The position numbers and the translations under genes were made by a program. 64,000 nucleotides of DNA from an uncultured Clostridia bacterium (GTDB lineage: Bacteria > Acidobacteriota > Blastocatellia > UBA7656), in the NCBI GenBank assembly GCA_964468725.1, contig CAYXVU010000003.1:3681-67680 (forward strand), read 5' to 3'. The notes under the pieces were generated by a model. It was not told the DNA's origin. It worked only from the letters and a program-made list of their open reading frames with translations, and searched no databases. Of this stretch, positions 7,568-33,247 are shown one piece after another; the first letter of the stretch is position 1; each line of letters begins with the position of its first letter.

Positions 7568-8047
7568 ATGATGATTTTTTCAAAGACCACAGCTTACGGA
7601 GTTCGCGCCATGGCCTACCTCGCCATGCATCCTGCGCTGTGTGGTCTGAAAGAGATTGCTGAGAACGAAAAGATTCCCCCGGTCTACTTGCGAAAAGTGT
7701 TGGGCGAGTTGCGCAGGCATCGCCTCTTGCGCTCCGTTAGAGGATTGCATGGAGGCTATGAATTGGCTCGCGCGCCCGAAGCGATCACCTTGCTCGATGT
7801 TTTTCAGGTGTTGGAACCCGATCCTTATCTGGATGCCTGCATTTTGGGGCATGAGGTGTGTAAGGCCGAAACTGCCTGCGCGTTGCACGCGGAATGGCAA
7901 GGCGTGCGCGAAGAGATTGTCCGGTTATTGCAGAGTAAAACGATCTCTGATTTGGCACAGGCCACAGCGATAGACCGACCGGTTTCTATTACAGAGAGCG
8001 ACTCTCGTTGGGAAGCGCAGGAAAATTCGGATGAGTGGGAGCGATGA
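7568..8047 (+). CDS. Rrf2-family transcriptional regulator (NsrR/IscR-like, with a Cys-x-x-Cys-x5-Cys cluster-binding region)
   Basis: N-terminal winged-helix KTTAYGVRAMAYLA plus the C-terminal cysteine triad CILGHEVCKAETAC. Its stop overlaps the next start (ATGA at 8044-8047). Confidence 0.8.
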   Translation: MMIFSKTTAYGVRAMAYLAMHPALCGLKEIAENEKIPPVYLRKVLGELRRHRLLRSVRGLHGGYELARAPEAITLLDVFQVLEPDPYLDACILGHEVCKAETACALHAEWQGVREEIVRLLQSKTISDLAQATAIDRPVSITESDSRWEAQENSDEWER

Positions 8048-9960
8048 TGGCGGCACTGAAGACAGATGTTCCAGGCAGCACCTATCATCAAGACTTGATC
8101 GCTTGTCAGGTCGCTTGTCCTGTGCATACCGATGCCCGCGGTTATGTGCGCGCCATTGCCGAAGGGCGGTTTGAAGAAGCCTATCTCATCGCGCGTGGCC
8201 CGAATCCCTTTGCTTCGATCTGCGGACGCATCTGCGGCGCACCCTGCGAAGCGGCCTGCCGTCGCGGCAAAGTGCCGCGCGTTGATGATGATGGCAATTT
8301 TGTTGCGCAGGATCGCCCCATTGCCATTCGAGCGCTCAAGCGGTTCGCCTGCGAGCAAGCTGGCCCCGAAGCCCGACCCGCAGATGCCATTTTGCGTGCC
8401 GTACAATCCTTCACCCCGCCGATAGCAGCTTATCCTGAAGAGATGGCAGCGTTGTTGCGCGCCGCCATCGAAGGGAGATTGATTCCAGCCGCAGGCGAAC
8501 GCGTCGCTATCATTGGCGCAGGTCCGGCGGGGCTTTCCGCGGCGCACGATTTAGCCCTGTTAGGCTGCAAACCAGTAGTGTTTGAAAGCGAGCCGGTGGC
8601 CGCAGGTATGCTGGCTGTCGGGGTTCCTGCCTATCGCCTGCCGCGCGAATTGATTGCCCAAGAGATTGCTGTGATCGAAGCCCTCGGCGTCGAGATTCGC
8701 TGTGGGGTAACGATTGGCAAAGAGATTTCATTTGCCGATTTGCGCAGAGATTTCGCTGCCGTGCTGATTGCTGTGGGAGCGAAAGCTTCACGGAGTTTGG
8801 GGCTCGAAGGCGAACATGGGCCGCGCGTTTATGGCGGCGTTGATTTGCTGCGCGCTGTGGCGCTCGGCGAAGCCCTCGACATCGGCCAAGATGTAGTTGT
8901 CATCGGTGGCGGCAACGTTGCCTACGACGTTGCTCGCACCATTGTTCGCCAGATCGCCTATGATGCAGCGCGCACGGCGGCGCGCTTGCCTGCAACCGCC
9001 CGCGTGCGATTGATCTCATTGGAAAGCCTCGAAGAGATGCCCGCCGACACTTTGGAAATCCTGGAAGGCGATGAAGAGGGAATCGAACGCCACAACGGTT
9101 GGGGGCCGGTGCGGATTCAACGCGATGCACAGGGTAACGTGACCGGCGTCATCTTTCGCCAATGCGTTCGCGTTTACGATGAAGCGAGACGCTTCGCGCC
9201 GGTCTTCGATGATCGGGTCACGCAGAACTTGCCTTGTGACACTGTGCTGCTTTCGGTCGGTCAAGCGCCCGCCCTCTCCTTTCTCGAAGAGGGTGGCAGC
9301 GACCTTGAGATGATGCGTCCCGGGTGGCCGAAGGTTGATCCGACAACTTTGGCCACGACGGCAGAGGGGGTGTTTGTCGCGGGCGATTTGGCGCACGGGA
9401 CGCGATTGCTGATTGATGCCGTCGCTTCCGGCAAAGCGGCGGCGCGCTCGATCTATCAATTCCTTACAGGTCGCACGCTGCATGCAGAAGCCGTGACCGC
9501 GCATGCGGTTTTGCCCCACTACAGACGCGAGCGCGGCTACGAGGCGATTCGCCGCGTCGCCGTTCCAGTTATCTCGCCGGAATCACGCCTCGAACATCCT
9601 GATTTGGTGGTCGAACGAGGATACAGCCGCGAGGAAGCGCAACGCGAAGCCTCGCGTTGTCTCGATTGCGGCGTCACGCCGGTCTTCGATGGCAGCCGTT
9701 GTGTGTTGTGCGGCGGGTGCGCGGATGTTTGCCCGACCGAATGTTTGAAACTGGTTGCCCTCAGCGATCTGGATTTGACCGGAGAGTTGACCGCTGCGGT
9801 TGAAAACACGTTCGGCGCGGAGGTGGATCTATCAGAGCATTCGGCCATTCTCAAAGATGAAGATCGTTGCATTCGTTGCGCCTTGTGTGTGCAACGCTGC
9901 CCGGTTGAAGCCATCGCGATGGAGAGGGTGACATTCACCAGTGTTTGGAGGTCGCAATGA
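8044..9960 (+). CDS. GltD-like (glutamate synthase small-subunit family) FAD/NAD(P)H oxidoreductase fused to a C-terminal 2x[4Fe-4S] ferredoxin domain
   Basis: GltD-type N-terminal Fe-S region (CQVACPVHTD...CGRICGAPCEAAC). Rossmann motif VAIIGAGPAGLSAA. Two CxxCxxCxxxCP motifs at the C-terminus. There is an alternative GTG start at 8035. Confidence 0.75.
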   Translation: MMAALKTDVPGSTYHQDLIACQVACPVHTDARGYVRAIAEGRFEEAYLIARGPNPFASICGRICGAPCEAACRRGKVPRVDDDGNFVAQDRPIAIRALKRFACEQAGPEARPADAILRAVQSFTPPIAAYPEEMAALLRAAIEGRLIPAAGERVAIIGAGPAGLSAAHDLALLGCKPVVFESEPVAAGMLAVGVPAYRLPRELIAQEIAVIEALGVEIRCGVTIGKEISFADLRRDFAAVLIAVGAKASRSLGLEGEHGPRVYGGVDLLRAVALGEALDIGQDVVVIGGGNVAYDVARTIVRQIAYDAARTAARLPATARVRLISLESLEEMPADTLEILEGDEEGIERHNGWGPVRIQRDAQGNVTGVIFRQCVRVYDEARRFAPVFDDRVTQNLPCDTVLLSVGQAPALSFLEEGGSDLEMMRPGWPKVDPTTLATTAEGVFVAGDLAHGTRLLIDAVASGKAAARSIYQFLTGRTLHAEAVTAHAVLPHYRRERGYEAIRRVAVPVISPESRLEHPDLVVERGYSREEAQREASRCLDCGVTPVFDGSRCVLCGGCADVCPTECLKLVALSDLDLTGELTAAVENTFGAEVDLSEHSAILKDEDRCIRCALCVQRCPVEAIAMERVTFTSVWRSQ

Positions 9961-10442
9961 CAACCAAAGCCAGTCCCGAACAATCACGACTCGACCCGGA
10001 GCCGATGCCGCGCAGAGATTTCCTCGGACTCTCGGCACTACTGGCGGCGGCTTCGTCCATGCTGTTTGCCGTCTTTGGCATGTTGCGATTGCCGAAGGCG
10101 GCAGTCCTGGCATCGCCTTCGAAAAAGTTCAGCGTGACGCTGCCCGATGCGCTCGCGCCGAACGAGCCATTCGTTCCGGCTGGCCGCGCCGTCGCGCTGT
10201 TCAAAGATGATGAAGGCGTCTATGCCCTCTCGACCATCTGCACCCATCTCGGATGCGTCGTGAAACCATCGCCGGAAGGATTCGAATGCCCATGTCATGG
10301 CTCAGGCTTTGCTCTAAACGGAGCCGTGACAAAAGGGCCAGCGCCGCGCGCTCTGCCTTGGCTGAAGGTCAGCAACTCAGGCAACGGCTGGGTGGTGGAT
10401 GAAGGCACGACCGTGCCTGCTGGTTCAAAGGTGAAAGCATGA
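9957..10442 (+). CDS. Rieske [2Fe-2S] protein with twin-arginine signal (RRDFLG)
   Basis: Rieske boxes CTHLGC and CPCHGS. Tat motif at the N-terminus. ATGA overlap with the upstream gene; a TTG start at 9945 is also possible. Confidence 0.85.
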   Translation: MTTKASPEQSRLDPEPMPRRDFLGLSALLAAASSMLFAVFGMLRLPKAAVLASPSKKFSVTLPDALAPNEPFVPAGRAVALFKDDEGVYALSTICTHLGCVVKPSPEGFECPCHGSGFALNGAVTKGPAPRALPWLKVSNSGNGWVVDEGTTVPAGSKVKA

Positions 10443-11992
10443 AGAGCATCGCGCCAACCGATTCGGCTCTGCGAGAGTTTTGGGAGAATCTGCGCGCCGC
10501 GCCGCGCCGCCTCTATGATTCGGCCTTTCGCGGCGGCGTACCCAAGACGGATCGCACCCGCTCGACATTTGTCTTCGGCAACGTCTTCTTACACCTGCAT
10601 GCGGTGCGCGTGCATCGTTGGAGCTTGCGATGGACGACGACGGCGGGACTCGGCATTGCCAGCACCGCAGCCTTTGTCGTCACGCTGGTGACCGGCGTGC
10701 TGTTGATGTTCTATTACAAGCCCTACCCCGAAGCCGCCTACGATTCGATCAAAGATATTCACTTCGTTGTGCCGACCGGACGCTTCATTCGCAACATTCA
10801 TCGTTGGGCGGCAAACGTCATGGTCGTCGCCGTCATTTTGCATATGGCGAGGGCGTTTTATACGGCTTCGTATCGCAAGCCGCGCGAGTTCAATTGGCTG
10901 GTTGGTTGGGGGTTGCTGGTTACGACGCTCGGACTCTCGTTTACGGGATACCTGCTGCCGTGGGATCAACTGGCCTATTGGGCGATTACTATCGGCGCGA
11001 ATATCGCGCAATCGCCGCGTGAAATCACCGACGCCATTGGCATCACCGAAGCCTTCGACCCCGGCGGATTGCAACGCCTCTTGTTGCTCGGCTCCGATAC
11101 GGTAGGCGATGAAGCGTTGATTCGCTTCTATCTGCTACACGTCATGATTTTGCCGTTGATCTTGACGATGTTGATGGCCGTACACTTCTGGCGCATTCGC
11201 AAAGACGGAGGCATTGCGCGGCCTGCCGATGCCGATGCGCGACTATCGCCGCCGGAGAAAGCGACCTATCCGGTATTCACCGAAGCGCCGACAAAGACGT
11301 ATCATCTGGCCGCCATCGTGCGCGGCAAGACATCTGCCGTCGGCAATTCGCCGGAGAACACCGTGCCCTCCATGCCGCATCTGTTTTATGCCGAGTTGGC
11401 CGTCCTGATGATTACCATTTTGATCTGTCTGGCGCTGGCCATCATGGTGGATGCGCCGCTCAAAGAGCTAGCAAACCCTGCGGTTCCGGAAAATCCTGCG
11501 AAAGCGCCTTGGTACTTTCTCGGATTGCAAGAGATGGTTTCGTTCTCCGCTTTTATGGGCGGCATCGGCATTCCGACCATCGTGCTGGTCGGTTTGGGAT
11601 TGATTCCGTTTCTCGACCGTGAATCGTCCGGTACGGGCGAATGGTTCGGCGGGCCGGGCGGTTGGTCATTGGTGAAGCGATCAATCGGGGTTGGCCTGAT
11701 TGCCGCTTTGGTCGTCGAAGCCATCGCCATTCGCTTCGGTTGGATACGGGAATGGTTTCCCAACGCGCCGCAGTTGCTTATCACCTTTATCAATCCCGGA
11801 ACCGTTCTGACCTTGATCTACGCGGCGTACTCGGTATGGTGCGTGCGCCGCTATAACTCGACGCGGGCGGGGGCATTGGGATTGTTCACCTGTTTCCTTT
11901 GCGGATTTTTGTTGCTGACCATCATCGGCACCTATTTTCGCGGGCCGAACTGGGTCTTTTACTGGTCGCCCGCTCAATGGCCGGGGCATTAA
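10439..11992 (+). CDS. Cytochrome b (long form; b6 plus subunit-IV-like fusion) of a Rieske/cyt b complex
   Basis: 517 aa, multi-TM. It has conserved haem-ligand histidines in NIHRWAANVMVVAVILHMARAF and LLHVMILP...HFWRIRK. ATGA overlap with the Rieske gene. Confidence 0.85.
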   Translation: MKSIAPTDSALREFWENLRAAPRRLYDSAFRGGVPKTDRTRSTFVFGNVFLHLHAVRVHRWSLRWTTTAGLGIASTAAFVVTLVTGVLLMFYYKPYPEAAYDSIKDIHFVVPTGRFIRNIHRWAANVMVVAVILHMARAFYTASYRKPREFNWLVGWGLLVTTLGLSFTGYLLPWDQLAYWAITIGANIAQSPREITDAIGITEAFDPGGLQRLLLLGSDTVGDEALIRFYLLHVMILPLILTMLMAVHFWRIRKDGGIARPADADARLSPPEKATYPVFTEAPTKTYHLAAIVRGKTSAVGNSPENTVPSMPHLFYAELAVLMITILICLALAIMVDAPLKELANPAVPENPAKAPWYFLGLQEMVSFSAFMGGIGIPTIVLVGLGLIPFLDRESSGTGEWFGGPGGWSLVKRSIGVGLIAALVVEAIAIRFGWIREWFPNAPQLLITFINPGTVLTLIYAAYSVWCVRRYNSTRAGALGLFTCFLCGFLLLTIIGTYFRGPNWVFYWSPAQWPGH

Positions 11993-11996
11993 GGCG

Positions 11997-13652
11997 ATGA
12001 ACAAGAGCAAACATTTACTCTTATGGTCGAGCATTGGCGTGCTGACGCTGCTTATCGTTGCCGCTGTGGATGAGAACTATTGGAAAGAGTGGCGGCGCAT
12101 TCAAAAAGCGACGCGTTCGGCAGAAGGCGCGATTGATGTGCGCTTGCGGCAAGTCATCAATCCCGGACTCGCAATCTCTGACCGCTGCGTTTCGTGTCAC
12201 GTTGGGATGTCGCCGGGAGAGCAAGATATATTCGGCGCCTCAGTCGTTGCGCCGCACAAACCCGTCGTGCATCAACCAACCGAGATGGGTTGCACCATCT
12301 GTCATGGCGGGCAGGGACGCGCGACGGACAAAGCCGATGCGCACGGCGCTGTGCGATTTTGGCCGCAGCCGATGTTGCCGACAAAATACAGCTATGCGGG
12401 ATGTGGAACCTGCCACACCCCTCTACATATCCCCAGTCGGGTGGCGCTTGAGAAAGGGCGCAGCGCATTCGAGCGATTGGATTGTTACGCCTGCCATCGG
12501 TTGGACGGACGCGGCGGCACGCTGCGCCCTGGCGGCGGCGGGATGGAAGGCCCGGATTTATCGCATGTCGGACTGAAAGGCTTTGATGCGGGCTGGTATG
12601 ACAAACACCTGAAGAGTTACGAAGGCGCAACCGCCGGAACCTGGCGCGATGCGTTCGGGCCGATTGATGAAAGCGAGCGTCAAGCGCTGAGTCTTTTTCT
12701 CTCTTCGCGCATCGGCGCGCCGCGACTGATCGAAGCCAAGGCGCTGTTCAACTCGGTCGGCTGTTTGGGCTGTCATAAAGTGGGTGGTACGGGTGGCGAT
12801 GCCGGACCCGATCTGTCGCGCAGCGGCGAACGCGACCCCGGCCAACTCAATTTCACGTCGGTCAAAGGCGAACATACGTTATCGAATTGGTTGGCGGAAC
12901 ACTTTCGCTCGCCGGTCGCCACCGTACAAGGGTCGCAAATGCCGATGCTCGGGTTGACGGAATCCGAGATTGACTTGTTGACCCTGTACACGTTGTCGCT
13001 GCGGCGCAGAGAGCTGCCGAGCGTCTATCTGCCAAAAGATCGCGTGCAGGCGATGCGGTTTGGCGAGCGCGAATTTGCTACTGATGGGGCGACCGTCTTC
13101 AGCGCCATCTGCGCGGGCTGTCACGGTCGCGATGGCAAAGGCATACGCTACCCCGGCGTGCCACCCTTTCCTTCGATCATCAATCCCGATTTTTTAGAGC
13201 TTGCTTCCGATGAATTTATCGTGCAGACGATTACCAAAGGTCGCTCCGGTCGCAAGATGTTAGCGTGGGGCGAAAAAGAGGGTGGCCTGCGCCCCGACGA
13301 GATCAGAGCCGTTGTCGGGTATTTGCGACAAGCCGCAGGCAACATCGCAGCCAAACCGGAGACCGAGCCGCCGCGTTGGGTCAGAGGGGATGTGAAGTTG
13401 GGCAGCCGCCTGTTTACCGCCAACTGTGCGGGGTGTCACGGACAGAGAGGTGAAGGCGGCGAAGGCCCTGCGCTCAATAACAAAACCCTGCTCGGTTTTG
13501 CCACAGATCGCTTCTTGGTTGACACCATCAGTCGCGGGCGCAGAGGAACAGCGATGCAGAGTTTTCTCACTCCTTCGCCGGTTCGCGCTGCGCTCACGCC
13601 ATCGGAGATCGAAACCATCGTCGCGTTCATCCGCACTTGGGAGGGTAAGTAG
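11997..13652 (+). CDS. Membrane-anchored heptaheme cytochrome c (N-terminal tetrahaem module plus three class-I monohaem domains)
   Basis: Seven CxxCH motifs (CVSCH, CTICH, CGTCH, CYACH, CLGCH, CAGCH, CAGCH). N-terminal TM helix. It starts 5 nt after the cytochrome b stop. Confidence 0.8.
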
Positions 13653-13656
13653 AGTT

Positions 13657-16600
13657 ATGAAAAGAGAGATGTCACGGCGCGAATTTTTTGAACGAGTTTC
13701 AGCGGCAGGATTTGGCGCGCTCCTCGCTTCTTCGAGCCAAGCGTGGGCGCTGGAGGCCATCAGCAACCCGCTGGCGGTCTATCCGGATCGCGGTTGGGAG
13801 CGCGTCTACCGCGACCTGTGGAAATACGATTCGAAGTTCACCTTTACCTGCGCTCCCAACGATACGCACAACTGCTTGCTCAATGCCTATGTGCGTTCCG
13901 GTGTGGTAACGCGCATTGGCCCGACGATGCGCTACGGCGAAGCGACAGACCTCAACGGCAATGGCGCGACGCATCGTTGGGACCCGCGCATCTGTCAAAA
14001 AGGGCTGGCATTGACGCGACGGTTTTACGGAGATCGGCGCGTCAACGGCTGCATGGTGCGCGCCGGATTCAAACGTTGGTACGAAGAGAAGTTTCCGCGC
14101 GGCAACGATGGCCGCCCGCCGAGCGAATACTTTCAACGCGCCCGCGATGAATGGGTGCGAGTGTCGCACGACGAAGCCGCCACTATCGTTGCCGCCGCCT
14201 TGAAAAACATTGCCGAAACCTACAGCGGCGAAGAGGGCAAAAAACGGCTCAAAGCGCAGCATTACGATGAAGCGACCATCGAAGCGACGCAGGGGGCAGG
14301 CACTCAGGTCTTGAAGTTTCGCGGCGGCATGCCCCTGCTCGGCATTACACGGGTCTTCGGTATGTATCGCTTTGCCAATTCGATGGCGTTATTGGATTCG
14401 GCGATTCGCGGCGTCGAACCGGATAAAGCCATCGGCGGCAAAGGCTTCGACAATTATTCGTGGCACACAGACCTGCCGCCCGGCCATCCGATGGTGACCG
14501 GACAACAGACGGTTGAGTTCGATCTCTCTGCTGTCGAGCATGCCAAAACGGTCGTTGTCTGGGGCATGAATTGGATTACCACCAAGATGCCCGATTCGCA
14601 TTGGCTCACCGAAGCGCGGCTCAAAGGCACGCGGGTCATCGTCATCGCCTGCGAATACTCGGCGACGGCCAGCAAAGGCGATGATGTTTTAGTCGTCAGA
14701 CCCGGCACGACGCCCGCGCTCGCGCTCGGCTTTGCTAACGTAATTCTGCGAGAGAATCTCTATAACAAGGACTATGTGCGCCAGTGGACGGACTTGCCGA
14801 TTCTGGTTCGCACCGACACCTTGAAGTACCTGCGCGCCGAAGAAGTCTTCGGGCAGCGACCCGGTGCGTTGCAAGCGACTCGCGTCCTCAAAGAGGGCGA
14901 GAGGGAGCCGCCCGCCGCGCAACAAAAAGAGAGCATCATCACCGAAAAGCTGCGCTTGGAGTGGGGCGATTTTCTCTGGTGGGATCGCGCCAGCAACACG
15001 CCGAAGCTATTGACTCGCGATGAAGTTGGGAAGAATTCAAAAATCGGTGATGCCCTGTTGGAAGGCGCGGTTGAGGTGACGCTGGCAAACGGCGAGAAGG
15101 TTCGCTGTCGTCCGGTCTTCGATTTGGTGAAAGAGTATGCGGCGCATTTCGACCCGCAAACGGTCGAAGAGATTACCTGGGCACCGGCTGCCGCAGTCGA
15201 AGCTCTGGCGCGCGACTTTGCTAAAGAGCCGGGAACGACGCTTTTTGCCGTCGGCATGGGGCCGAATCAATTCTTTAACAACGACAACAAAGACCGCGAT
15301 ATTTTCCTGCTCGCGGCCTTGACCGGCAACGTCGGAAAGATCGGCGGCAACGTCGGGTCGTTTGCGGGGAATTATCGCGTTGCTCTCTTCAACGGCTCGC
15401 CTCAGTACATCAACGAAAACCCGTTCGACATTGAACTCGATCCGGCCAAACCCGCCCGCCCGCGTCAGTATTGGCGCGCGGAGTCGGCGCACTATTACAA
15501 CCACGAAGATCATCCGCTCCGCGTCGGCAACAAACTCTTAACCGGCGCGACCCACATTCCTGCGCCGACCAAGTCTTTGTGGTTTGCCAACGCCAATTCG
15601 ATACTCGGCAATGTTAAGTGGCACTACAACTCGGTGGTCAATGTGCTGCCGCGCTTCGAGATGATCGCCGTTCAAGAGTGGTGGTGGTCTACATCGTGCG
15701 AGTGGGCTGATGTCGTCTTCGGGGTGGATACGTGGGCGGAGTTGAAACACCCGGATATGACCGCATCGGTGACCAATCCGTTTTTGATTCTCTTCCCGCG
15801 CACTCCGCTGGCGCGCATCTTCAACACGATTGGCGACATAGAAGTGCTGGCGTTGGTCTCCGCGAAGATGGCCGAATTGACCGGCGACAATCGCTTTAAT
15901 GATTACTGGAAATTTGTGCGCGAGAATCGCACGGATGTCTATTTGCAACGGGTGCTCGATGCTTCGACCAACACGAAGGGGTACAAGTTTCACGAACTCG
16001 AAGCGAAAGCTCTCGAAGGCATTCCGGCGCTGATGAATTCGCGCACCACGCCGAAGGCCGTCGGCTACGATCAAGTCACCGATTCGACGCCTTGGTACAC
16101 CAAAAGCGGCAGGTTGGAGTTTTACCGCGAAGAGAACGAGTTCATCGAAGCGGGCGAAAATCTGCCGGTGCATCGAGAGCCGGTGGATTCGACTTTCTAT
16201 GAGCCAAACGTGATTATCGCGCCGCCTCACGAAGCGATTCGTCCGGCGGGGCCGGAAAGCTACGGTGTGAAACGCGACGATCTATCGTGCGAAACACGTT
16301 GCGGGCGCAATGTTGTGCTGACCTGGGAAGAGACGAAAAAGTCGGCGCACCCGCTCATCAAACAAGGCTACAAGTTTATCTTTCACACGCCGAAGTACCG
16401 GCACGGTTCGCACACGACGCCGATTGATACCGATATGGTTGCAGTGTTGTTTGGGCCTTTTGGCGACATCTATCGTCACGACAAGCGCAGCCCCTTTGTC
16501 ACCGAAGGCTATGTGGACATCAATCCCGCCGATGCGCGCGAATTGGGAGTGCACGATGGCGATTACGTTTGGGTTGACCCTGACCCGGAGGATCGCCCAT

Positions 16601-17100
16601 TTCGCGGTTGGCAAAATAACCAACGCGATTACGAATTCGCCCGCTTATTGTGTCGGGCGCGCTATTACCCCGGCACGCCGCGCGGCGTGACGCGCATGTG
16701 GTTCAACATGTACGGGGCAACGCCGGGGTCGCAACAGGGGCAACGCGAGCGCAAAGATGGACTCGCTAAAAACCCGCGCACGAACTATCAAGCGATGTTT
16801 CGTTCGGGTTCGCATCAATCGGCGACGCGCGGCTGGCTGAAGCCGACCTGGATGACCGATTCGCTGGTCAGAAAAGGACTCTTCGGGCAGGGGATTGGCA
16901 AAGGCTTTTTGCCCGATGTGCATTGCCCGACCGGCGCGCCGCGCGAAGCGATTGTCAAGATCAGCCGCGCCGAGCCGGGCGGCATTGAGGGCAAAGGGTT
17001 GTGGCGTCCCGCAGAACTTGGCATCCGACCCAATTACGAATCGCAAGAGATGCAGAGATACCTCGCCGGTCAATTCATCAGTGACGGAAAGGAGAAATAG
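13657..17100 (+). CDS. Tat-exported molybdopterin oxidoreductase catalytic (alpha) subunit, type II DMSO reductase family (periplasmic NarG/NxrA-like)
   Basis: 1147 aa, counted from the [11 protein letters not shown] start; this is the correct reading frame of the longer ORF listed in the track. It has an SRREFF twin-arginine signal, an N-terminal C-X3-D-X3-C-X39-C cluster motif, and a Nar/Nxr-like length. It is followed directly by its beta subunit. Confidence 0.8.
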
Positions 17101-17102
17101 CT

Positions 17103-18254
17103 ATGGCTCGCGTTTACAACTGGCAACTCGGAAGGCAGATGTCCTACTGGTATCCTGAAAGTCGCCCGCAAAAACAGTTCGCGGCGGTCTTTGACATCAA
17201 TAAATGCATCGCGTGTCAAACCTGCACTTTGGCCTGCAAGACGACGTGGACATCAGGGCAAGGGCAAGAGTACATGCTTTGGAACAACGTCGAGACCAAA
17301 CCTTATGGCTTCTATCCGTTGGCCTGGGATTTGAAACTTCTCGAAAAACTTGAAGGGCAGAATTGGGCGACCGGCGAATACGAAGGACGCCCGACTCACA
17401 CCTACGAAGGGCGCACCATCTTTGAAGCCGCCCCGCCCGGCGAGCGCGTTTTAGGATGGAGGCCGGAAGATCAAGACTACGCCTATCCCAACGTCGGCGA
17501 AGACGATTGCGCGGGGCAGATCGAACATGGCGCGAGTTTGCAAGTGCCGCATATGAACTGGTTTTTCTATCTGGCGCGCATTTGCAATCACTGCACCTAT
17601 CCTGCCTGTCTATCATCCTGTCCACGCGGGTCAATCTATAAACGACCGGAAGATGGCATTGTATTGCTCGATCAAGGCCGCTGTCGCGGCTATCAGGAAT
17701 GCGTCAAAGCCTGCCCGTACAAGAAGGTCTTCTTCAATGCGCTGACCGGCACATCGGAAAAATGCATCGCCTGTTTTCCGAAGATTGAACAGGGGTTGCA
17801 ACCGCAATGCTTCGTCAACTGCATCGGCAAGATTCGCTTGGCAGGTTGGATTTCGCCTCCCGATAAAGCCAAAGCCGATAACCCGATAGACTATCTTGTA
17901 CACATTCGCAAAATCGCATTGCCGCTCTTTCCGCAATTCGGCTTGGAACCGAACGTCTATTACATCCCGCCGATTCACGCGCCCGCATCGTTTCTGCGGC
18001 AGATGTTCGGGCCGGGCGCAGAAGAGGCTGTGAAGACTTACCGACAAGCCGCACAAGACCCGGAACTCTCCGGCCTGCTCGGACTCTTTGGCTCGACGGA
18101 GATGGTGATACCCAAATGGCGGCGGCAAGGTGATCGAGTGATTGGCATAACCGAATCGGGCGCGGAGGCCGTGCGAGTGCCGCTGCGGGAGCCGATTCAG
18201 ATTCGCCCGGCCTACGATCAGTTGTACCAGATTTCGCGGGTGAATTGCCCGTGA
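17103..18254 (+). CDS. Iron-sulfur beta subunit (NarH/NxrB-like, four Fe-S cluster motifs) of the type II DMSOR enzyme
   Basis: [38 protein letters not shown] and [11 protein letters not shown]...C. Good RBS. It starts 3 nt after the alpha subunit stop. Confidence 0.8.
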
Positions 18255-18351
18255 GGGCATGAAAGCTGAGATAGGAGAATCGGCGCAAAGGTTCAACCAG
18301 ATTTGCGGACGGTTCACAGAGTCGCATCCGCGAAGCGAAGAAGGAGGCTGT

Positions 18352-19206
18352 ATGCGGACACCACTTCGATATATTGCAGGGGTGATGATCTTCAGTTTGG
18401 TGATGAGTTGGGGGTGTCGTCGGGCGACGGTTTTGACTCCCGAAGTCGTTGCGGTTACGGCCAAGCAACTACCAACCGACCCCGGCGACCCGGCGTGGGA
18501 TAAGGTCTCTGAGCATGTGGCCAAGTTGGTGCTGCAAGATTTGGTCGAGCCGCGCTTGATGGAGGCTTCGACGCCGGAAGTTCACGTCCGCGCCATAACC
18601 GACGGCACGGAGGTTGCCTTTCGATTGCAGTGGGCAGACCCGACGATCAATGATGCGCCCGGCCCAATGCATTTTCTCGATGCCTGCGCGGTTCAGGTGC
18701 CTTCGAAGGTCGAAGCGAATGTACCCGCGCCGCAGATGGGCGAAGCGGGCAAGCCCGTCGAAATCGCCTTTTGGCGTGCCGATTGGCAAGCTTCGGTTGA
18801 CGGGCGCGAAGACTCGATCAACGCCTTGCACCCCAATGCTTCGGTGGATCATTACCCTTACAACGCACAGTCATTAGAGAAAGGTTCGGAAGCGCAGCAA
18901 GAGATGGCGAAACGGTACGCTCCGGCCAGCGCGGTTGGCAATCGCCGCGTCGGCCCGCGCAACACGCCGGTTGAAGACTTAATTGCCGAAGGGCCGGGCA
19001 CGCTCTCCCCCGCGCCGCAATCGCTGTCAAAAGGGCGCGGCGCGCATGGGCAGGATGGTTGGTCGGTCGTCATTATTCGTCATTTGCCCAATGATTGGAC
19101 GCCGCAGACGCGCTCGCAGATTGCGTTTGCCGTGTGGGAAGGAAATCATCAAGAGGCTGGCGCACGCAAGATGCGAACGGGATGGATTCCGTTGTTGATG
19201 AGGTGA
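18352..19206 (+). CDS. Putative gamma subunit (ethylbenzene-dehydrogenase-gamma / NxrC-like haem b domain) with signal peptide or lipobox
   Basis: Strong RBS AAGGAGG before the ATG at 18352. Signal peptide with ...LVMSWGC. Its size and position match EB_dh-type gamma subunits. No CxxCH is present, which is consistent with haem b. Family assignment is by architecture only. Confidence 0.5.
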   Translation: MRTPLRYIAGVMIFSLVMSWGCRRATVLTPEVVAVTAKQLPTDPGDPAWDKVSEHVAKLVLQDLVEPRLMEASTPEVHVRAITDGTEVAFRLQWADPTINDAPGPMHFLDACAVQVPSKVEANVPAPQMGEAGKPVEIAFWRADWQASVDGREDSINALHPNASVDHYPYNAQSLEKGSEAQQEMAKRYAPASAVGNRRVGPRNTPVEDLIAEGPGTLSPAPQSLSKGRGAHGQDGWSVVIIRHLPNDWTPQTRSQIAFAVWEGNHQEAGARKMRTGWIPLLMR

Positions 19207-19211
19207 GCAAG

Positions 19212-19862
19212 ATGAACGCGCAGGTGTTACAAGAACTACAGACGCGCAGGCTGTTGCGGGAAGCGACCGAGTGGCGGTTGCTGAGTTTGCTATTTGAATG
19301 TCCGACCGGAGGCTGGCGCGACAAGATCAGGGGGCTGGCCGCAGAGGTAACGGATGAAGATTTGAAGGCCGCAGTCGTAGCCGCTACAGTAGAAGCGAGC
19401 GAGGGGCTTTATCATTCGCTCTTTGGCCCCGGCGGCCCGGCTCCGGCGCGCGAAATCAGCCATCGGGCTTTGATTCAACCAGGCTATCTGATGGCTGAAT
19501 TGAGGAGTTACTACGACGCTTTCTCTTATCATGCCAATGCGGCGGAGGCGGTCGATCATGTGGCGGTAGAAGCCGGATTCCTCGCTTATCTGCGGTTGAA
19601 GGAAGCTTACGCAGCGGATTGTGGCGATGCCGAGAAGGCCGAATTGACGGCGGCGGCAGCACAGAGCTTTATGCGAGAGCACTTGGCTTTCGTTGCCGAA
19701 CCGCTCGCTGCTGCGCTTCAGCATTCTGGGGTGGGTTATCTGGCATTGGCCGGGCAGGCTTTGCTGCATCGCGCCGGTTCTGCCAAGCGCACAGCGCAAG
19801 GGCAACCGCTGCCCATCTTGTCTGAAGATGATGATTGTATGTTCGCCTGCGGAGAGTCGTAA
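19212..19862 (+). CDS. TorD/NarJ-family redox-enzyme maturation chaperone
   Basis: ~216 aa. The conserved TorD-like stretch EAVDHVAVEAGFLAYL resembles E-P-D-H-x-x-x-E-L-x-F. It occupies the last position of the operon, as chaperones do in nar/ddh/ser clusters. Confidence 0.6.
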   Translation: MNAQVLQELQTRRLLREATEWRLLSLLFECPTGGWRDKIRGLAAEVTDEDLKAAVVAATVEASEGLYHSLFGPGGPAPAREISHRALIQPGYLMAELRSYYDAFSYHANAAEAVDHVAVEAGFLAYLRLKEAYAADCGDAEKAELTAAAAQSFMREHLAFVAEPLAAALQHSGVGYLALAGQALLHRAGSAKRTAQGQPLPILSEDDDCMFACGES

Positions 19863-20101: not shown

Positions 20102-21655
20102 GTGATGAAGAACAACGCAACTGCGCGAATGAGGCTGAAAAAGTATTTCGTATGGGTTGCTCTGATCGCTCTGACGCTAACGGGTTGGGTGAATCGGGTG
20201 ATGGCGCAGCAGCCTGCAACCGCGAGCAGCACAGCAAAACCGGCGACGCAATCGCCCGCGCCCATCAAGATCGGCGATCTAACCTTTTCCGGCAGCCTGC
20301 GCCTGCGCGCCGAGAATTGGAATTGGTTTGAAACCGCTGCCGCCGATCACGATTACACCTTCGGAGCCGCCGTGTTGCGGTTGAGCCTCGCTCAACAAAC
20401 CGAGCGGCTCGATTGGCAAGTCGAAGGCATGTTTCCGGCGCTTATCAATCTGCCGGAGAAGGCCATTGCCCCCGCGCCGCAAGGGCAACTGGGACTCGGA
20501 GCCAGCTACTTTGCTGCCAACGGACAGCAGGATGCGAGCGCTATATTGAGACAGGCCTTCGTGCGCTTCAAAGGGCTGGGCGGCGATCAAGCGAGCAGTC
20601 TGCGAATCGGGCGATTCGAATTTGTCGAAGGCGCAGAGACTACACCTGCCGACGCAACGCTGGCAACCCTCAAACGCGATCATCTGGCGCATCGTCTGAT
20701 CGGCACTTTTGGCTTTTCGCATGTCGGGCGCAGTTTTGACGGCGTGCAGTATGCGCGGAATACCAAGACCTCCAATGTAACGGTAGTCGCGGCGCGACCA
20801 ACCGAAGGGGTCTTTCAATTGCGCAGCCTCTACGAACTGGATGTGGACTTCTATTACGGAGCCTATACCCGACCCTTTGCGACGAAGAATACGAAGAGCG
20901 ACGTGCGCGCTTTCGCCTTGCACTATCATGATGGCCGTCCGGCGCTGAAGACCGACAATCGCCCTTTGTTGGCGCGCCAAGCCGATGGCGAGAACCTGCG
21001 ATTGACCACCATCGGCGGACATTCGATTACGGCCATGAAAGCAGGAAGCGGAACCGCCGATCTGCTAGTTTGGGGAGTCGGACAATTCGGCAGTTGGGGC
21101 AGGCTCGATCATCGCGCCGGAGCCATCGCTGTAGAGGCAGGTTATCAACCGGGCGGCGCGCTTGCCGCCAAACTCAAACCCTGGATACGGGGCGGCTACT
21201 TCCGCAGCACCGGAGACGGCAATCCCGGCGATGATGCGCACACCACCTTTTTTCAAGTGCTGCCAACGCCGCGCATCTACGCGCGCTTTCCCTTTTACAA
21301 CCTCATGAATAATGAAGATGTGTTCGCGCAACTGCGGCTGAAACCGCATGCGCGGTTGGCGCTGCGCGGTGACGTTCGTCATCTGCGCTTGAGCAATGAA
21401 AATGATCTTTGGTATGTGGGCGGCGGCGCGTTTCAGAAAAATTCCTTCGGATACATTGGGCGACCGAGCGGCGGGAAAAAGAGTATGGGGACGCTCTTTG
21501 ATGTGAGCCTGGATTACACGGTGGCGTCACGCACGGCGTTGACCTTTTATGTGGGAGGAGTGCGCGGCGGCGGCGTGCCTGCCGCCATTTATCCGCAAGG
21601 CGGGAATAATCCGGCAGCCCATTTTCTCTACTTCGAATTCACCCAGCGATTTTAG
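20102..21655 (+). CDS. Outer-membrane beta-barrel protein (putative porin) with signal peptide
   Basis: N-terminal signal (ALIALTLTGWVNRVMAQQ). Alternating amphipathic beta strands. C-terminal aromatic-terminal motif ...YFEFTQRF. Confidence 0.5.
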   Translation: MMKNNATARMRLKKYFVWVALIALTLTGWVNRVMAQQPATASSTAKPATQSPAPIKIGDLTFSGSLRLRAENWNWFETAAADHDYTFGAAVLRLSLAQQTERLDWQVEGMFPALINLPEKAIAPAPQGQLGLGASYFAANGQQDASAILRQAFVRFKGLGGDQASSLRIGRFEFVEGAETTPADATLATLKRDHLAHRLIGTFGFSHVGRSFDGVQYARNTKTSNVTVVAARPTEGVFQLRSLYELDVDFYYGAYTRPFATKNTKSDVRAFALHYHDGRPALKTDNRPLLARQADGENLRLTTIGGHSITAMKAGSGTADLLVWGVGQFGSWGRLDHRAGAIAVEAGYQPGGALAAKLKPWIRGGYFRSTGDGNPGDDAHTTFFQVLPTPRIYARFPFYNLMNNEDVFAQLRLKPHARLALRGDVRHLRLSNENDLWYVGGGAFQKNSFGYIGRPSGGKKSMGTLFDVSLDYTVASRTALTFYVGGVRGGGVPAAIYPQGGNNPAAHFLYFEFTQRF

Positions 21656-21722: not shown

Positions 21723-22475
21723 GTGGTTATGATGATTGATAGCGCAGAGACCGTCGGCCAATTGGCGGTTATGATTCCCGGGGCGACGCAAATTTTCGAA
21801 CAACTACAGATTGACTATTGCTGTAAGGGGAATCAGACGCTATTGGAAGCTTGCACGACGGCAAACATTCCGATTGCGTTGGTGATCGTCTCTCTGCAAC
21901 AGGCAGAGGCTGCGGGACAAGCTGCCGAAGCCGCGCCGCAAAGCTGGCAGCACGCTACCCTTACCGAGTTGATCGCTCATATTCTGGAGACCCATCACGT
22001 CTACACGCGCGCGGAGTTGGAGCGACTGGAATCTTTGCTTGCCAAAGTCGTTTCCGTGCATGAAAAGAATCACCCCGAGTTGGCGGCGTTGCAGAAGAGC
22101 TTCTTTGTCTTAAAGCAAGACTTGCTGCCGCATATGTATAAAGAAGAGCAAGTGTTGTTTCCGTACCTGATGGAGATGGAAGCCTTGATCGCCCGACAAC
22201 AGAGCGTGCCGCGTCCGTTCTTCGGCTCGGCGCAGAATCCCATTCGGATGATGATGCTGGAGCACGATGCGGCGGGCGAGGCGCTGCGCGAGATGCGCGC
22301 CTTGACGCAGGATTACCGACTGCCTGCGGATGCCTGTCCGAGCTATCACAATCTCTACAGCGGTCTGGCGGCATTCGAAGCCGACTTGCACCGGCACATT
22401 CACTTGGAGAACAACCTGCTCTTTCCTCGCGCTTTGGCGATAGAGAGCCGAGCCGCGAGCGCGACCGTCGCTTGA
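21723..22475 (+). CDS. ytfE: Iron-sulfur cluster repair di-iron protein (YtfE/ScdA/RIC family)
   Basis: ScdA N-terminal motif QIDYCCKG. The C-terminal region has the His/Glu-rich hemerythrin-like di-iron domain (HHVYTRAELE...; HIHLENN). Confidence 0.75.
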   Translation: MVMMIDSAETVGQLAVMIPGATQIFEQLQIDYCCKGNQTLLEACTTANIPIALVIVSLQQAEAAGQAAEAAPQSWQHATLTELIAHILETHHVYTRAELERLESLLAKVVSVHEKNHPELAALQKSFFVLKQDLLPHMYKEEQVLFPYLMEMEALIARQQSVPRPFFGSAQNPIRMMMLEHDAAGEALREMRALTQDYRLPADACPSYHNLYSGLAAFEADLHRHIHLENNLLFPRALAIESRAASATVA

Positions 22476-23808: not shown

Positions 23809-25086
23809 ATGAATAGACGACATCAAATCGCTGCTCTGATCCTGGCTGTGGCCAGTCTGCTGGGGTTCGTTTCATGCGCCCCTCCGCAGGGTTCCGACAC
23901 GCCGTTGACCAAAGCGAACTTCGAACAATCCTTTCAAGAGGCTTTGATCAAAGCCAAACCGGGCAGCGTGATTGAATTGCCGGAAGGTACATTCAAATTC
24001 GATAAGACGCTCTCGCTTTCGGTCAATAACGTCACGCTGCGCGGCAAAGGGATGGACAAAACGATTCTTTCGTTTGCCGGACAACAGGCAGGGTCTGCGG
24101 GGATGCTGGTCAAAGCCAACGATTTCGTCATCGAAGACTTGGCATTGGAAGATTCGGCGGGCGATGCCCTCAAAGTGGACGGCGGCACTAATATCACGAT
24201 TCGCCGCGTTCGCGTCGAATGGACGGGCGGCCCGAATGTCAGCAATGGCCCTTATGGCATTTATCCCGTCACCTGTAAGAATGTGTTGGTCGAAGAGTCG
24301 GTCGCCATCGGCGCCTCTGATGCGGGCATCTACATCGGACAGTCCGAACAGGTCATCATTCGCCGCAATCGCGCCGAGCAAAATGTCGCTGCCATCGAGA
24401 TTGAAAATACCAAGCACGCCGATGTCTACGAAAATACCGTGACCAGTAACACTGGCGGCATACTGGTCTTCAACCTTCCCGATCTGCCGGTGCAAGGGGG
24501 CGGCTTCGTGCGCGTCTTTAACAACAAAGTGATGGCCAACAACACGCCGAACTTTGCCCCCAAAGGGCAGACCGTTTACAACCTCGCCACCGGCACGGGG
24601 ATGTTGATTATGGCGGTCAAAAACGTTGAAGTCTTTGGCAATGTCATCAAAGACCACAATACGACCAACATCAATGTGGTCAGCTACCTGTCGGCGGCGA
24701 GCGCCAGCGAAATCAAGAATCCCAACTTCAATCCCTATGTCGCCTCGGTCTACCTTCATGACAATGAAATCTCCGGCAGCGGCAAAGAACCCGATAGCCG
24801 TTTGGAAAAATGGCAAGCCTTAGCGCAAGCCACCGGCAAACCGCTGCCCGATATTATTTACGATGGCATCCTTGAGCCGGTGAACAACAAACCGGGCACG
24901 GTAGCGGATGCAAAAATCTGCATTGAGAAGAATGGCAGCGCGACCTTCATGAATTTTGACGGGGCGGGCGGCTTCAAAAATATCAGCCGCGATTTGAGCC
25001 AGCATAAATGTTCGATTCCGTCGCCCGAAGCCATCACCTTGCCGCAGACCAACGGCACGAGGGCGAAAGCCGGAGGCAGTCTGTAA
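23809..25086 (+). CDS. Parallel beta-helix repeat lipoprotein (pectate-lyase/NosD-like fold)
   Basis: Lipobox LGFVSC. It has repeated beta-helix coils (NITIRRVRVEW..., NVLVEESVAIGASDAGIYIGQSEQVIIRRNRAE..., ADVYENTVTSNTGGILVF). It overlaps the next gene by TAATG. Confidence 0.65.
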   Translation: MNRRHQIAALILAVASLLGFVSCAPPQGSDTPLTKANFEQSFQEALIKAKPGSVIELPEGTFKFDKTLSLSVNNVTLRGKGMDKTILSFAGQQAGSAGMLVKANDFVIEDLALEDSAGDALKVDGGTNITIRRVRVEWTGGPNVSNGPYGIYPVTCKNVLVEESVAIGASDAGIYIGQSEQVIIRRNRAEQNVAAIEIENTKHADVYENTVTSNTGGILVFNLPDLPVQGGGFVRVFNNKVMANNTPNFAPKGQTVYNLATGTGMLIMAVKNVEVFGNVIKDHNTTNINVVSYLSAASASEIKNPNFNPYVASVYLHDNEISGSGKEPDSRLEKWQALAQATGKPLPDIIYDGILEPVNNKPGTVADAKICIEKNGSATFMNFDGAGGFKNISRDLSQHKCSIPSPEAITLPQTNGTRAKAGGSL

Positions 25087-26147
25087 TGCGTCAGTCGGTT
25101 TGCGCGGCGTTGATCTTGCTCGCTCTCGGTTGTTTTGCCAGTTGTGGGCGAGGCAGCGGCGTGCAGTCTTATTTGGAAGAGCCTTTTCCGAAACGGCTTT
25201 CGGACTGGCAGTTGTTCGTCAAAGGCGCGACGCCGCTGGTTCCCAATCAGCGCGTCGTGCCTTATGACCTGAACACGCCGCTGTTTTCCGATTATGCCAG
25301 CAAGTATCGCTTTGTGTGGATGCCGGAAGGGACGGCGGCGACCTATCACGAAGAGGAAGCCTTTGCCTTTCCGGTCGGCGCGATTCTTTCAAAGACTTTC
25401 GCCTATCCGGCAACGGATAGTTCGTCGGGCGAGCGCTTGATCGAAACGCGCTTGTTGGTGAATACCGAAAGCGGATGGGTATCGCTGCCTTATGTCTGGA
25501 ATGCTGAACAGACCGATGCGATACTGCAAATTGCAGGCAGTACAGCGCACATTGGCATGACGGATGCTAGCGGACAGGTGCAAACGATTCGTTACAACAT
25601 TCCCAATACCAATGAGTGCGCGCAGTGCCACGATCTCTCAAAGACGCTATTGCCGGTCGGAACCAAAGCGCGGCAACTCAATCGTGACTTTGCCTACCCG
25701 GACGGCACGGCCAATCAACTGGATTACTGGACGAAGATCGGCTATTTGACAGGCGCGCCGCCCTCCTCTGCCGCTCCGAAGTTGGCCGTGTGGAATGACT
25801 CGCAGAGCGCTTCAATGGAGGCGCGCGCACGCGCCTATCTGGATGGCAACTGCGCCCACTGTCACCGCGCCAACGGTTCGGCGGGCTATACGGCGTTTTT
25901 GCTCGATTGGAAAGAGACAGACCCGCGCCGGTTGGGGTATTGTAAGAGTCCGAACTCTGCGGGTTTCTCCGGCAATCTGGCTTTTGACGTTGTGCCGGGA
26001 AAACCGGATGAGTCCATTTTGATCTATCGTATGCAATCCACACGCGCCAAAGAGATGATGCCGGAGATTGGGCGCAGCACCATTCACCAGGAAGGCTTGG
26101 CCTTGATTCGAGAATGGGTCGCTTCGCTCAAGGGCAAATGTGAATGA
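25086..26147 (+). CDS. Dihaem c-type cytochrome lipoprotein, partner of the beta-helix protein
   Basis: Lipobox LALGCFASC. Two CxxCH motifs (CAQCH, CAHCH). Translationally coupled to 23809..25086. Confidence 0.65.
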   Translation: MRQSVCAALILLALGCFASCGRGSGVQSYLEEPFPKRLSDWQLFVKGATPLVPNQRVVPYDLNTPLFSDYASKYRFVWMPEGTAATYHEEEAFAFPVGAILSKTFAYPATDSSSGERLIETRLLVNTESGWVSLPYVWNAEQTDAILQIAGSTAHIGMTDASGQVQTIRYNIPNTNECAQCHDLSKTLLPVGTKARQLNRDFAYPDGTANQLDYWTKIGYLTGAPPSSAAPKLAVWNDSQSASMEARARAYLDGNCAHCHRANGSAGYTAFLLDWKETDPRRLGYCKSPNSAGFSGNLAFDVVPGKPDESILIYRMQSTRAKEMMPEIGRSTIHQEGLALIREWVASLKGKCE

Positions 26148-33079: not shown

Positions 33080-33247
33080 ATGACCCTCGCCAAGTCGGCG
33101 ACTATGCAATGGCGACTCGGGGGCGTCCGTTTGTCGGCAGGCGGCAATGTGATGGCGATCACAGGTGAGCGTGATCGTGGATACCGATTTTTTGCCGCCG
33201 ATTTTTTATGCTCATCCCAGCTAATTGAAACTTTTCGGCGGAGGATG

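Follow-up and report, generated by a model that had tools for sequence, protein, structure and literature searches.

An aspartate-containing FS0 motif in a probable periplasmic nitrate/nitrite oxidoreductase of a Blastocatellia bacterium and its Rieske/cytochrome b gene module

Introduction

Does an aspartate in the N-terminal iron-sulfur cluster motif (FS0) of a molybdenum enzyme identify a nitrite oxidoreductase (NXR), and does its presence in a lineage of non-nitrifiers bear on the evolution of nitrite oxidation? The question is raised by a 64,000-nucleotide stretch (hereafter the window) from an uncultured bacterium placed by GTDB in the Blastocatellia (Acidobacteriota), which corresponds to positions 3,681 to 67,680 of contig CAYXVU010000003.1 (GenBank assembly GCA_964468725.1). 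It encodes an alpha subunit in which an initial annotation had noted the motif C-x3-D-x3-C-x39-C and had read it as a sign of an Nxr-type enzyme. We consider it probable that this protein is the catalytic subunit, exported by twin-arginine translocation (Tat), of a periplasmic molybdenum nitrate/nitrite oxidoreductase, most likely a respiratory nitrate reductase. The aspartate-type FS0 motif and its evolutionary implication are already known, and the enzyme is an uncharacterised relative of a known type. The features of the alpha gene are as follows:

13657-17100, + strand: alpha subunit, 1147 amino acids (best phmmer match 7B04_B, Kuenenia NxrA)
13672-13689, + strand: Tat motif S6-R-R-E-F-F11 (direct reading of the translation)
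13849-13995, + strand: FS0 [4Fe-4S] motif C65-x3-D69-x3-C73-x39-C113, with N68 inside (alignment to Kuenenia NxrA and NarG)
14470-14472, + strand: codon of D272, predicted molybdenum ligand in Y267-x4-D272-x11-Q284-T285 (aligns with Kuenenia Asp275)
16393-16395, + strand: codon of K913, equivalent to Kuenenia Lys917 and NarG His1092 (residue mapping)

The aspartate as a predicted cluster ligand

Motif, spacing and position had all been read exactly: in the translation, codon 65 begins at 13849 and codon 113 finishes at 13995. Residues 61-76 are FTFTC65APND69THNC73LLN and residues 107-116 are RWDPRIC113QKG. The ATG of the gene has a GGAGG Shine-Dalgarno sequence about 11 nt on its 5' side, and the preceding gene terminates 4 nt before it. 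Cleavage of the Tat signal is likely at A-W-A (residues 29-31); in the Tat motif R7 is invariant and R8 and F10 are at least 90% conserved in both clades compared.

A phmmer search against all PDB sequences returned the NxrA of Kuenenia stuttgartiensis (7B04_B) first, matched over its full length at E 2e-249, and the other matches were far weaker (PcrA 8e-43, EbdA 8e-37, NarG about 1e-35). CAPNDTHNC pairs with Kuenenia CSPNDTHAC, the alignment is gapless through the fourth cysteine, and C65, N68, D69, C73 and C113 correspond to Kuenenia C67, N70, D71, C75 and C115. When the N-terminal 111 residues of E. coli NarG were aligned, C65 fell on His49, N68 on N52, D69 on Cys53, C73 on Cys57 and C113 on Cys92; the register is confirmed by the PDB variants H49C and H49S, which share the same column. 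The motif had been proposed to replace the H/C-x3-C-x3-C of NarG-type enzymes, with the aspartate at a ligand position, and both alignments bear this out.

In the 3.0-Å crystal structure of the Kuenenia NXR, FS0 is held by C67, D71, C75 and C115 (Chicano et al. 2021, PMC8387239). In NAR and EBDH a histidine occupies the position of Cys67, and in Kuenenia NxrA Asn70 positions the substrate and Asp275 binds molybdenum (PMC8387239). The aspartate is described by these authors as previously noted (their ref. 3), and the statement in the initial annotation that Asp-containing motifs occur in the NxrA of Nitrospira and anammox bacteria was correct. By residue equivalence, FS0 of the alpha subunit is predicted to be held by Cys65, Asp69, Cys73 and Cys113 as in the Kuenenia NXR, the contact between D69 and iron being taken from 7B04; molybdenum would be bound by Asp272 and the substrate positioned by Asn68. 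D272 does not vary in the two alignments A1 and A2, nor, apart from one degenerate protein, in any full-length representative of the family. An AlphaFold2 model of the alpha subunit, based on an alignment of 64 sequences spanning 39-88% identity (pLDDT 75, pTM 0.79), superposes on 7B04 NxrA with a template modelling score (TM) of 0.87-0.89, and on PcrA, EbdA and NarG with 0.57-0.59.

Two further residues were considered as ligands. C132 as fourth cysteine was rejected because Kuenenia NxrA lacks a cysteine at the corresponding position. C65, C73 and C113 are the only cysteines among residues 1-131 and C132 is the next, so a cysteine ligand in a shifted register is impossible. H71 was also rejected as a shifted-register ligand; it is invariant in Asp-type and all-Cys variants alike, and in Kuenenia the equivalent His73 is present, yet the ligand in the crystal is Asp71. 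Neither of the two alignment outcomes that had been named as speaking against the proposal, an aspartate off the ligand position or a canonical His/Cys in a shifted register, was found.

Conservation and placement among relatives

Relatives of the alpha subunit were counted in at least 583 non-nitrifier species genomes, chiefly of Acidobacteriota and Planctomycetota, and the best 80 of these loci, taken from species-representative genomes with 10-kb flanks, were compared. FS0 reads C[A/T]PNDTHNC-x39-C in 80 of 80 loci, and the Asp motif is likewise kept in 120 of 120 close homologues. Because of this invariance and the full-length match to Kuenenia NxrA, the motif is not a product of chance. 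The best 80 loci come mostly from Acidobacteriota (Blastocatellia, Pyrinomonadaceae, Chloracidobacterium, Bryobacterales, Solibacteraceae), followed by Planctomycetota (Thermoguttaceae, Phycisphaerae, Pirellulales) and a few others, and more than 120 cluster representatives are 80-88% identical to the alpha subunit. The view that the host belongs to a non-nitrifier lineage agrees with the cystathionine gamma-synthase encoded in the window, all named relatives of which (83-86%) are from Blastocatellia.

The claim of an Nxr-type enzyme in a non-nitrifier stood in part: the Asp-type FS0 and the lineage are real, but the protein is 39% identical to Kuenenia NxrA (42% to P0124, a representative of the core NXR clade) and falls outside that clade. 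It was reported that NxrA of nitrite-oxidizing and anammox bacteria share about 60% identity, and that those of Nitrotoga and Hydrogenobaculum are about 40% identical to Kuenenia NxrA (PMC8387239). The alpha subunit is thus short of the 60% or more of core NXRs and sits on a separate branch. In a neighbour-joining tree without bootstrap, in which the branching order among Asp-type clades is tentative, the nearest neighbour of the window clade is a Gaiellaceae clade (55% identical), SAR202 (45%) joins next, and the core NXR clade stands apart. Residue mapping gave T309 for the Asn312 and M534 for the Glu527 of Kuenenia; this pair is a weak discriminator, since the alpha homologue of Halorussus, of the haloarchaeal nitrate-reducing type, also has N/E.

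Asp and the equivalent of Lys913 occur together in the window, Gaiellaceae, SAR202/Dehalococcoidia (45%) and core NXR clades; the corresponding pair Kuenenia Lys917/NarG His1092 is named in PMC12300631. An all-Cys FS0 (C-x3-C-x3-C) with the His of NarG at the Lys913 position was found in more distant clades that resemble periplasmic nitrate reductases, in representatives from Thermincola, Obscuribacterales, Halorussus and Ammonifex (30-36%). Within the core NXR clade itself (64-85% identical to Kuenenia NxrA), an all-Cys FS0, CSPNCTHxC, is present in 25 of 121 full-length proteins, all with the Lys913 equivalent kept; they include P0333, P0341, P0391 and P0405, and some are named NC10, Nitrospinota or Tectomicrobia. 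Core-clade NxrA homologues are also encoded in metagenome-assembled genomes (MAGs) of NC10, Chloroflexota, Omnitrophota, Tectomicrobia and Acidobacteria. Since these 25 proteins carry Cys at the position, the aspartate is not diagnostic of nitrite oxidation; from the alignments, it is a tunable position and no signature of that reaction.

This agrees with the literature, where NXR homologues in non-nitrifiers and the occurrence of 3Cys/1Asp or 3Cys/1His FS0 among NXRs as well as NARs have been described (PMC6050957, PMC9562985, PMC10732223). NXR homologues were found across diverse phyla (Mosley et al.; Suarez et al.), and the Nitrotoga NXR shares a sister clade with periplasmic nitrate reductases (pNARs) from established nitrate reducers (Kitzinger et al. 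2018, PMC6050957). A special implication for the evolution of nitrite oxidation, as suggested in the initial annotation, had to be given up in view of these reports and the at least 583 species genomes with relatives, and so had the Asp motif as an Nxr marker, given the all-Cys core-clade proteins and a gene context that favors nitrate reduction.

The alpha subunit has the marks of dimethyl sulfoxide (DMSO) reductases of type II, namely the molybdenum-binding Asp in Y-x4-D-x11-Q, the FS0 motif and the four-cluster Fe-S beta, EB_dh haem b gamma and chaperone partners, and those of the periplasmic NXR/pNAR clade, namely Cys at NarG-His49, Asp at NarG-Cys53 and the Tat signal. The NCBIfam family cut-offs (TIGR03478, TIGR03477, TIGR03482) were not reached, and generic type II DMSO reductase models gave sub-threshold matches only. 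In one relative of 1104 amino acids (P0127, 38% identical) the FS0 site reads CADPEGHGC, with Glu for Asp, and the substrate Asn is missing and His replaces Tyr267. It looks like a divergent paralogue.

The operon and its conserved module

The alpha gene lies in the following series of genes:

7568-8047, + strand: Rrf2-family regulator with C-x8-C-x5-C (Pfam Rrf2; NCBIfam Rrf2 superfamily reached, IscR/NsrR below cut-off)
8035-9960, + strand: GltD/NfnB-like Fe-S flavoprotein, NAD(P)-binding and cytoplasmic, with additional ferredoxin domains (Pfam Fer4_20, Pyr_redox_2, Fer4)
9945-10442, + strand: Rieske [2Fe-2S] protein with N-terminal RR motif and membrane anchor (Pfam Rieske)
10439-11992, + strand: cytochrome b of the b6 type, joined to a part resembling subunit IV, with six hydrophobic segments (Pfam Cytochrome_B, Cytochrom_B_N_2)
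11997-13652, + strand: membrane-anchored heptahaem cytochrome c (seven CxxCH, N-terminal hydrophobic helix, Pfam cytochrome c families)
17103-18254, + strand: beta subunit, Fe-S electron transfer, 383 amino acids (7B04_A NxrB, E 4e-121; Pfam Fer4_11)
18259-19206, + strand: gamma subunit, EB_dh haem b, without transmembrane helix (7B04_C NxrC, E 7e-17; Pfam EB_dh)
19095-19862, + strand: NarJ/TorD-type assembly chaperone (Pfam Nitrate_red_del; NCBIfam type II DMSO reductase chaperone)

The Rieske, cytochrome b and cytochrome c genes (9945-13652) stand directly upstream of the alpha gene in the same orientation, with gaps of at most 4 nt or overlaps; further upstream, the flavoprotein gene overlaps the Rrf2 gene by 13 nt and the Rieske gene by 16 nt. 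The CxxCH motifs of the cytochrome c are at residues 64, 99, 136, 163, 256, 372 and 477. Against NCBIfam, the cytochrome b was cytochrome b6/ExtP-like, below cut-off. The best PDB match of the flavoprotein was NfnABC (9BOV/9BP5, E 1e-72), and the best solved relatives of the Rieske protein were the Kuenenia proteins 9RK4 (Kuste4569) and 9RK3 (Kustd1480), at E about 4e-15. On comparing the gamma subunit with NxrC, it was found that the Met haem ligand aligns (APQMGE against SPRMGD) and that a Lys lies within one position of Lys305. The first 31 codons of its reading frame (18259-18351) precede M32, the first residue of a stretch that resembles a signal peptide and has SWGC at its end. Translation probably begins at this M32 (18352), with a Sec or lipoprotein-like signal, and the subunit may be a lipoprotein. 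The chaperone probably starts near 19212, past the gamma stop codon.

The gene set is nearly invariant. Counted as loci with the gene among loci with enough flank, the flavoprotein is present in 59/59, the Rieske protein in 62/63, cytochrome b in 63/63 and cytochrome c in 70/71 upstream, and the beta subunit in 66/66, gamma in 59/60 and the chaperone in 57/58 downstream; in the sole locus outside the cytochrome c distance threshold (L047), the gene stands at -2162. Over about 8083-19767, loci of other phyla show a nucleotide similarity of 65-75%, with sharp borders and unrelated flanks, and the alpha subunit is 78-88% identical among MAGs of Acidobacteriota, Planctomycetota, Acidimicrobiia and Zixibacteria. 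The sharp borders and the high identity across phyla suggest that the 11.7-kb module has spread horizontally as a whole.

The enzyme shares with the Kuenenia NXR-ABC (7B04, PMC8387239) its three subunits, Tat export, the 3Cys/1Asp FS0 with identical C-x3-D-x3-C-x39-C spacing, the substrate Asn, the molybdenum Asp, Lys913/917 and a gamma subunit of the EB_dh type that is soluble and has a Met ligand with a Lys close by. It differs in the alpha identity and the T309/M534 pair given above, in its acidobacterial host, and in an operon tied to Rieske/cytochrome b genes and nrfHA rather than to an anammox cluster. The NXR-T/tubule context of Kuenenia was not seen here, though no search aimed at it was made. 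The clade of the Candidatus Nitrotoga fabula NXR, Hydrogenobacter pNAR and Hydrogenobaculum (PMC6050957) is alike in being periplasmic, with a soluble gamma subunit and about 40% identity to Kuenenia NxrA; its Nitrotoga/Hydrogenobaculum rows resemble APNDTHNC...RW(D/E)PRIC here, as far as the published NxrA alignment (PMC8387239) is legible in low-quality optical character recognition. The E. coli NarGHI (1Q16) also has a molybdenum bis-molybdopterin guanine dinucleotide cofactor with an Asp ligand, FS0 in the same position and a NarH-like beta subunit. It is, in contrast, cytoplasmic and without a Tat signal, its FS0 reads H49-x3-C53-x3-C57-x34-C92 and its partner is the dihaem quinol oxidase NarI; NarG is about 16% identical to the alpha subunit (TM 0.57), which scores 145 bits against a cut-off of 1084 with the NCBIfam narG model. 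The C-x3-D-x3-C motif, Tat signal and EB_dh gamma subunit thus set the enzyme apart from cytoplasmic NarGHI.

Substrate and direction of the reaction

Downstream of the operon, three further loci bear on the substrate:

21723-22475, + strand: ScdA/RIC-type di-iron protein (Fe-S repair under nitrosative stress; Pfam ScdA_N, Hemerythrin)
29723-30505, + strand: Crp/Fnr-family regulator with N-terminal C-x4-C-x2-C-x8-C (Pfam cNMP_binding, HTH_Crp_2)
35185-35637 (nrfH) and 35753-37150 (nrfA), + strand: ammonia-forming cytochrome c nitrite reductase (Pfam Cytochrom_NNT; Cytochrom_C552, E 9e-137)

Against the NCBIfam model for ammonia-forming nitrite reductase, nrfHA remained below the cut-off. In 25 of the 80 loci a ScdA/RIC homologue is encoded no more than 10 kb from the operon. 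With the Fe-S regulator Rrf2 at the start of the operon, ScdA/RIC after it and the Fnr-like regulator and nrfHA downstream, the context speaks for nitrate reduction.

Chlorate, perchlorate, selenate or, as in EbdA, a hydrocarbon might be thought of as substrates, because the family includes PcrA, SerA, ClrA and EbdA, the NCBIfam matches are no more specific than type II DMSO reductase, and the cytochrome b resembles, below cut-off, ExtP/ExtQ of a selenite/tellurite reduction operon. NXR is nevertheless much closer (E 2e-249, TM 0.87) than PcrA and EbdA (E 1e-43 to 1e-37, TM 0.57-0.59), the substrate Asn (Ile in EbdA) and the molybdenum Asp are conserved, and the neighbours are nitrogen-oxide genes. 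We regard such a substrate as highly improbable.

That the reaction runs toward nitrite was concluded from this nitrogen-oxide context together with a cultured parallel and a haloarchaeal precedent. The planctomycete Thermogutta terrifontis respires nitrate and makes ammonium through NrfAH (PMC5673643), and its NarG falls in the NXR clade (PMC10732223). Its genes THTE_1506-1512 (Elcheninov et al. 2017, PMC5673643) comprise complex III genes, NarG, NarH, a third subunit and TorD, as here, and NrfAH is encoded elsewhere in the genome of an organism that grows by nitrate reduction. The published description was of a cytoplasmic Nar with NarI, whereas here a Tat signal marks the alpha subunit, and an EB_dh haem b protein lacking a membrane helix forms the third subunit. 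Thermoguttaceae MAGs carry the same module, with alpha subunits 81-82% identical.

As for the precedent, a periplasmic Nar is genetically coupled to Rieske/cytochrome b in haloarchaea too (Baymann et al. 2012, PMC3509893), and in the window the Rieske and cytochrome b genes are adjacent to and co-oriented with those for alpha and beta. Quinol electrons are proposed to reach NarH and NarG there by way of Rieske/cytochrome b and a periplasmic b-type cytochrome, and nitrate-dependent growth is sensitive to antimycin (PMC3509893). The haloarchaeal-type alpha subunit (Halorussus, 35% identical) differs in its all-Cys FS0, CHPNCTQSC, and in having His where Lys913 stands here; descriptions of those clusters include neither an NAD(P)-binding flavoprotein nor a heptahaem cytochrome c. 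The sister clade of periplasmic NXRs includes the characterised pNAR of Hydrogenobacter thermophilus (PMC6050957), and the Kuenenia NXR itself reduces nitrate, the enzyme family being reversible (PMC8387239).

From the homology, ligand equivalence, conservation and gene linkage observed, we infer the catalytic direction, the electron path and the redox tuning as follows. The co-encoded Rieske/cytochrome b complex would oxidize quinol, and the electrons would be taken up by the heptahaem cytochrome c anchored in the membrane, handed to haem b in the soluble gamma subunit and relayed by the Fe-S clusters of the beta subunit to FS0 and the molybdenum centre, where periplasmic nitrate would be reduced to nitrite. 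NrfHA, encoded 16 kb downstream, would then convert the nitrite to ammonium. The Asp ligand, Lys913 and the Met/Lys-type haem b would together tune a high-potential wire fed by cytochromes and not by a NarI-type quinol oxidase. The Asp ligand is read as no marker of reaction direction.

The opposite reading is that the Blastocatellia host and its many relatives possess a true NXR, by which periplasmic nitrite is oxidized to nitrate. In this case a terminal oxidase would receive the electrons from gamma haem b via the heptahaem cytochrome c, the purpose being energy gain or detoxification, and the Rieske/cytochrome b and NAD(P) reductase complex would run reverse electron flow to NAD(P)H. The best solved relative of the alpha subunit is indeed an NXR, and the Asp-type FS0, Lys913, soluble gamma subunit and periplasmic orientation are common to the NXRs of Nitrospira, Nitrospina, anammox bacteria and Nitrotoga. 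Given high-potential carriers, uncharacterised members of the clade are allowed as nitrite oxidizers by Kitzinger et al. (PMC6050957). A c-type cytochrome is co-encoded here, and an NAD(P) reductase on a Rieske/cytochrome b complex is what an autotrophic nitrite oxidizer would need. Against this stand the identity of only 39% to Kuenenia NxrA, the T and M in place of N312 and E527, and the setting of nitrate ammonification (nrfHA, Fnr-like regulator, RIC). The one cultured organism with the same gene order is a heterotrophic nitrate reducer, the hosts belong to heterotrophic lineages, and neither terminal oxidase nor CO2-fixation genes were found in the window. Nitrite oxidation as the physiological role appears improbable.

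Several points weigh against nitrate reduction as well. The family is reversible and its direction cannot be fixed from sequence alone; in this organism and clade the direction is inferred. Chicano et al. state that the aspartate affects the FS0 potential, without giving a direction (PMC8387239). The active-site neighbours are mixed, T309 being NarG-like, K913 NXR-like and M534 like neither. The nrfHA genes are 16 kb away and, within flanks that reached 10 kb, were visible near the module in just one other locus (L033). The link to T. terrifontis is through published gene order and MAG relatives, and a simple chain from quinol to nitrate leaves the role of the NAD(P)-binding subunit unexplained.

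Electron bifurcation as a possible refinement

It is the NAD(P)-binding subunit that leads to a further reading, which refines nitrate reduction and does not exclude it. The operon resembles the gene clusters Kuste4569-4574 and Kustd1480-1485 of Kuenenia, in which genes for a Rieske protein, a cytochrome b and a multihaem cytochrome c stand together with one for an Fe-S flavoprotein of the NAD(P) reductase-like type (PMC12954380). The partner there is an HAO-like octahaem protein, unlike the NXR-like molybdoenzyme of the window, and the hosts here are not anammox bacteria. For the anammox complexes, a bifurcation has been proposed in which menaquinol electrons go partly to a high-potential acceptor and partly to NAD(P)+ (PMC12954380). 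The resemblance of the window complex to these unusual Rieske/cytochrome b complexes, as judged from the encoded proteins, is the most interesting lead.

In such a scheme, the electron pair of menaquinol would be divided at Rieske/cytochrome b: the downhill electron would reach nitrate by way of cytochrome c and the NXR-like enzyme, and its partner would be driven uphill, over the b haems and the Fe-S flavoprotein, onto NAD(P)+. It would be the Kuste4569-4574 scheme with nitrate in place of nitrite as the sink. The flavoprotein gene is in fact never absent (59 of 59 loci with enough flank) and overlaps that for the Rieske protein, and its best solved relative, NfnABC, is the reported structural homologue of Kuste4570; the best solved relatives of the Rieske protein are two Kuenenia Rieske proteins of such complexes. 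The redox potential of nitrate is about +420 mV, and what has been argued on energetic grounds for menaquinol, nitrite and NAD(P) would hold for nitrate too. Bifurcation is, however, unproven even in Kuenenia, and the flavoprotein is likened to Kuste4570/Kustd1483 through a shared PDB relative, not directly. It could instead be an NAD(P)H-oxidizing entry point or regulatory, and a heterotroph has little obvious need for NAD(P)H by such a route. Bifurcation at this complex is considered unlikely. Unlikely, too, is the bolder idea that the whole module (about 8035-19862) forms one supercomplex which bifurcates menaquinol electrons between nitrate and NAD(P)+ and by which, when reversed, heterotrophs oxidize nitrite.

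Other genes of the window

Directly after the chaperone, at 20102-21655, a porin-like outer-membrane protein (Pfam Alginate_exp) is encoded, and an Alginate_exp homologue has the same place in several loci (e.g. L002, L016, L030, L044, L057 and L072). The protein may be a nitrate/nitrite channel. A YwiC-like protein is also encoded downstream of the operon. The region 23809-26147 holds a NosD-like beta-helix protein (425 amino acids) and an overlapping open reading frame (ORF) of 379 amino acids with two CxxCH motifs, an N-terminal hydrophobic segment and no Pfam match. Between the operon and nrfHA there are four co-oriented ORFs (26499-28754, 30987-32450, 32483-33079 and 33080-33646; 751, 487, 198 and 188 amino acids), for which Pfam gave no match. 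Rfam gave no RNA genes in the window.

Implications

The Asp ligand has been textbook knowledge for this enzyme clade since the 2021 structure, and the finding of the motif as such adds little. In hundreds of Acidobacteriota and Planctomycetota genomes the enzyme is labelled a generic molybdopterin oxidoreductase or, ambiguously, a nitrate reductase/nitrite oxidoreductase. For calling nitrite oxidizers the Asp motif is unfit, because Asp and Cys alternate within the core NXR clade. The invariable wiring to Rieske/cytochrome b and an NAD(P)-binding flavoprotein provides a tractable setting outside anammox bacteria for the bifurcation hypothesis, Thermogutta being in culture. If the supercomplex reading were true, a mechanism proposed only for anammox bacteria would extend to hundreds of common species, and if the complex also ran in reverse, abundant soil and sludge heterotrophs could oxidize nitrite.

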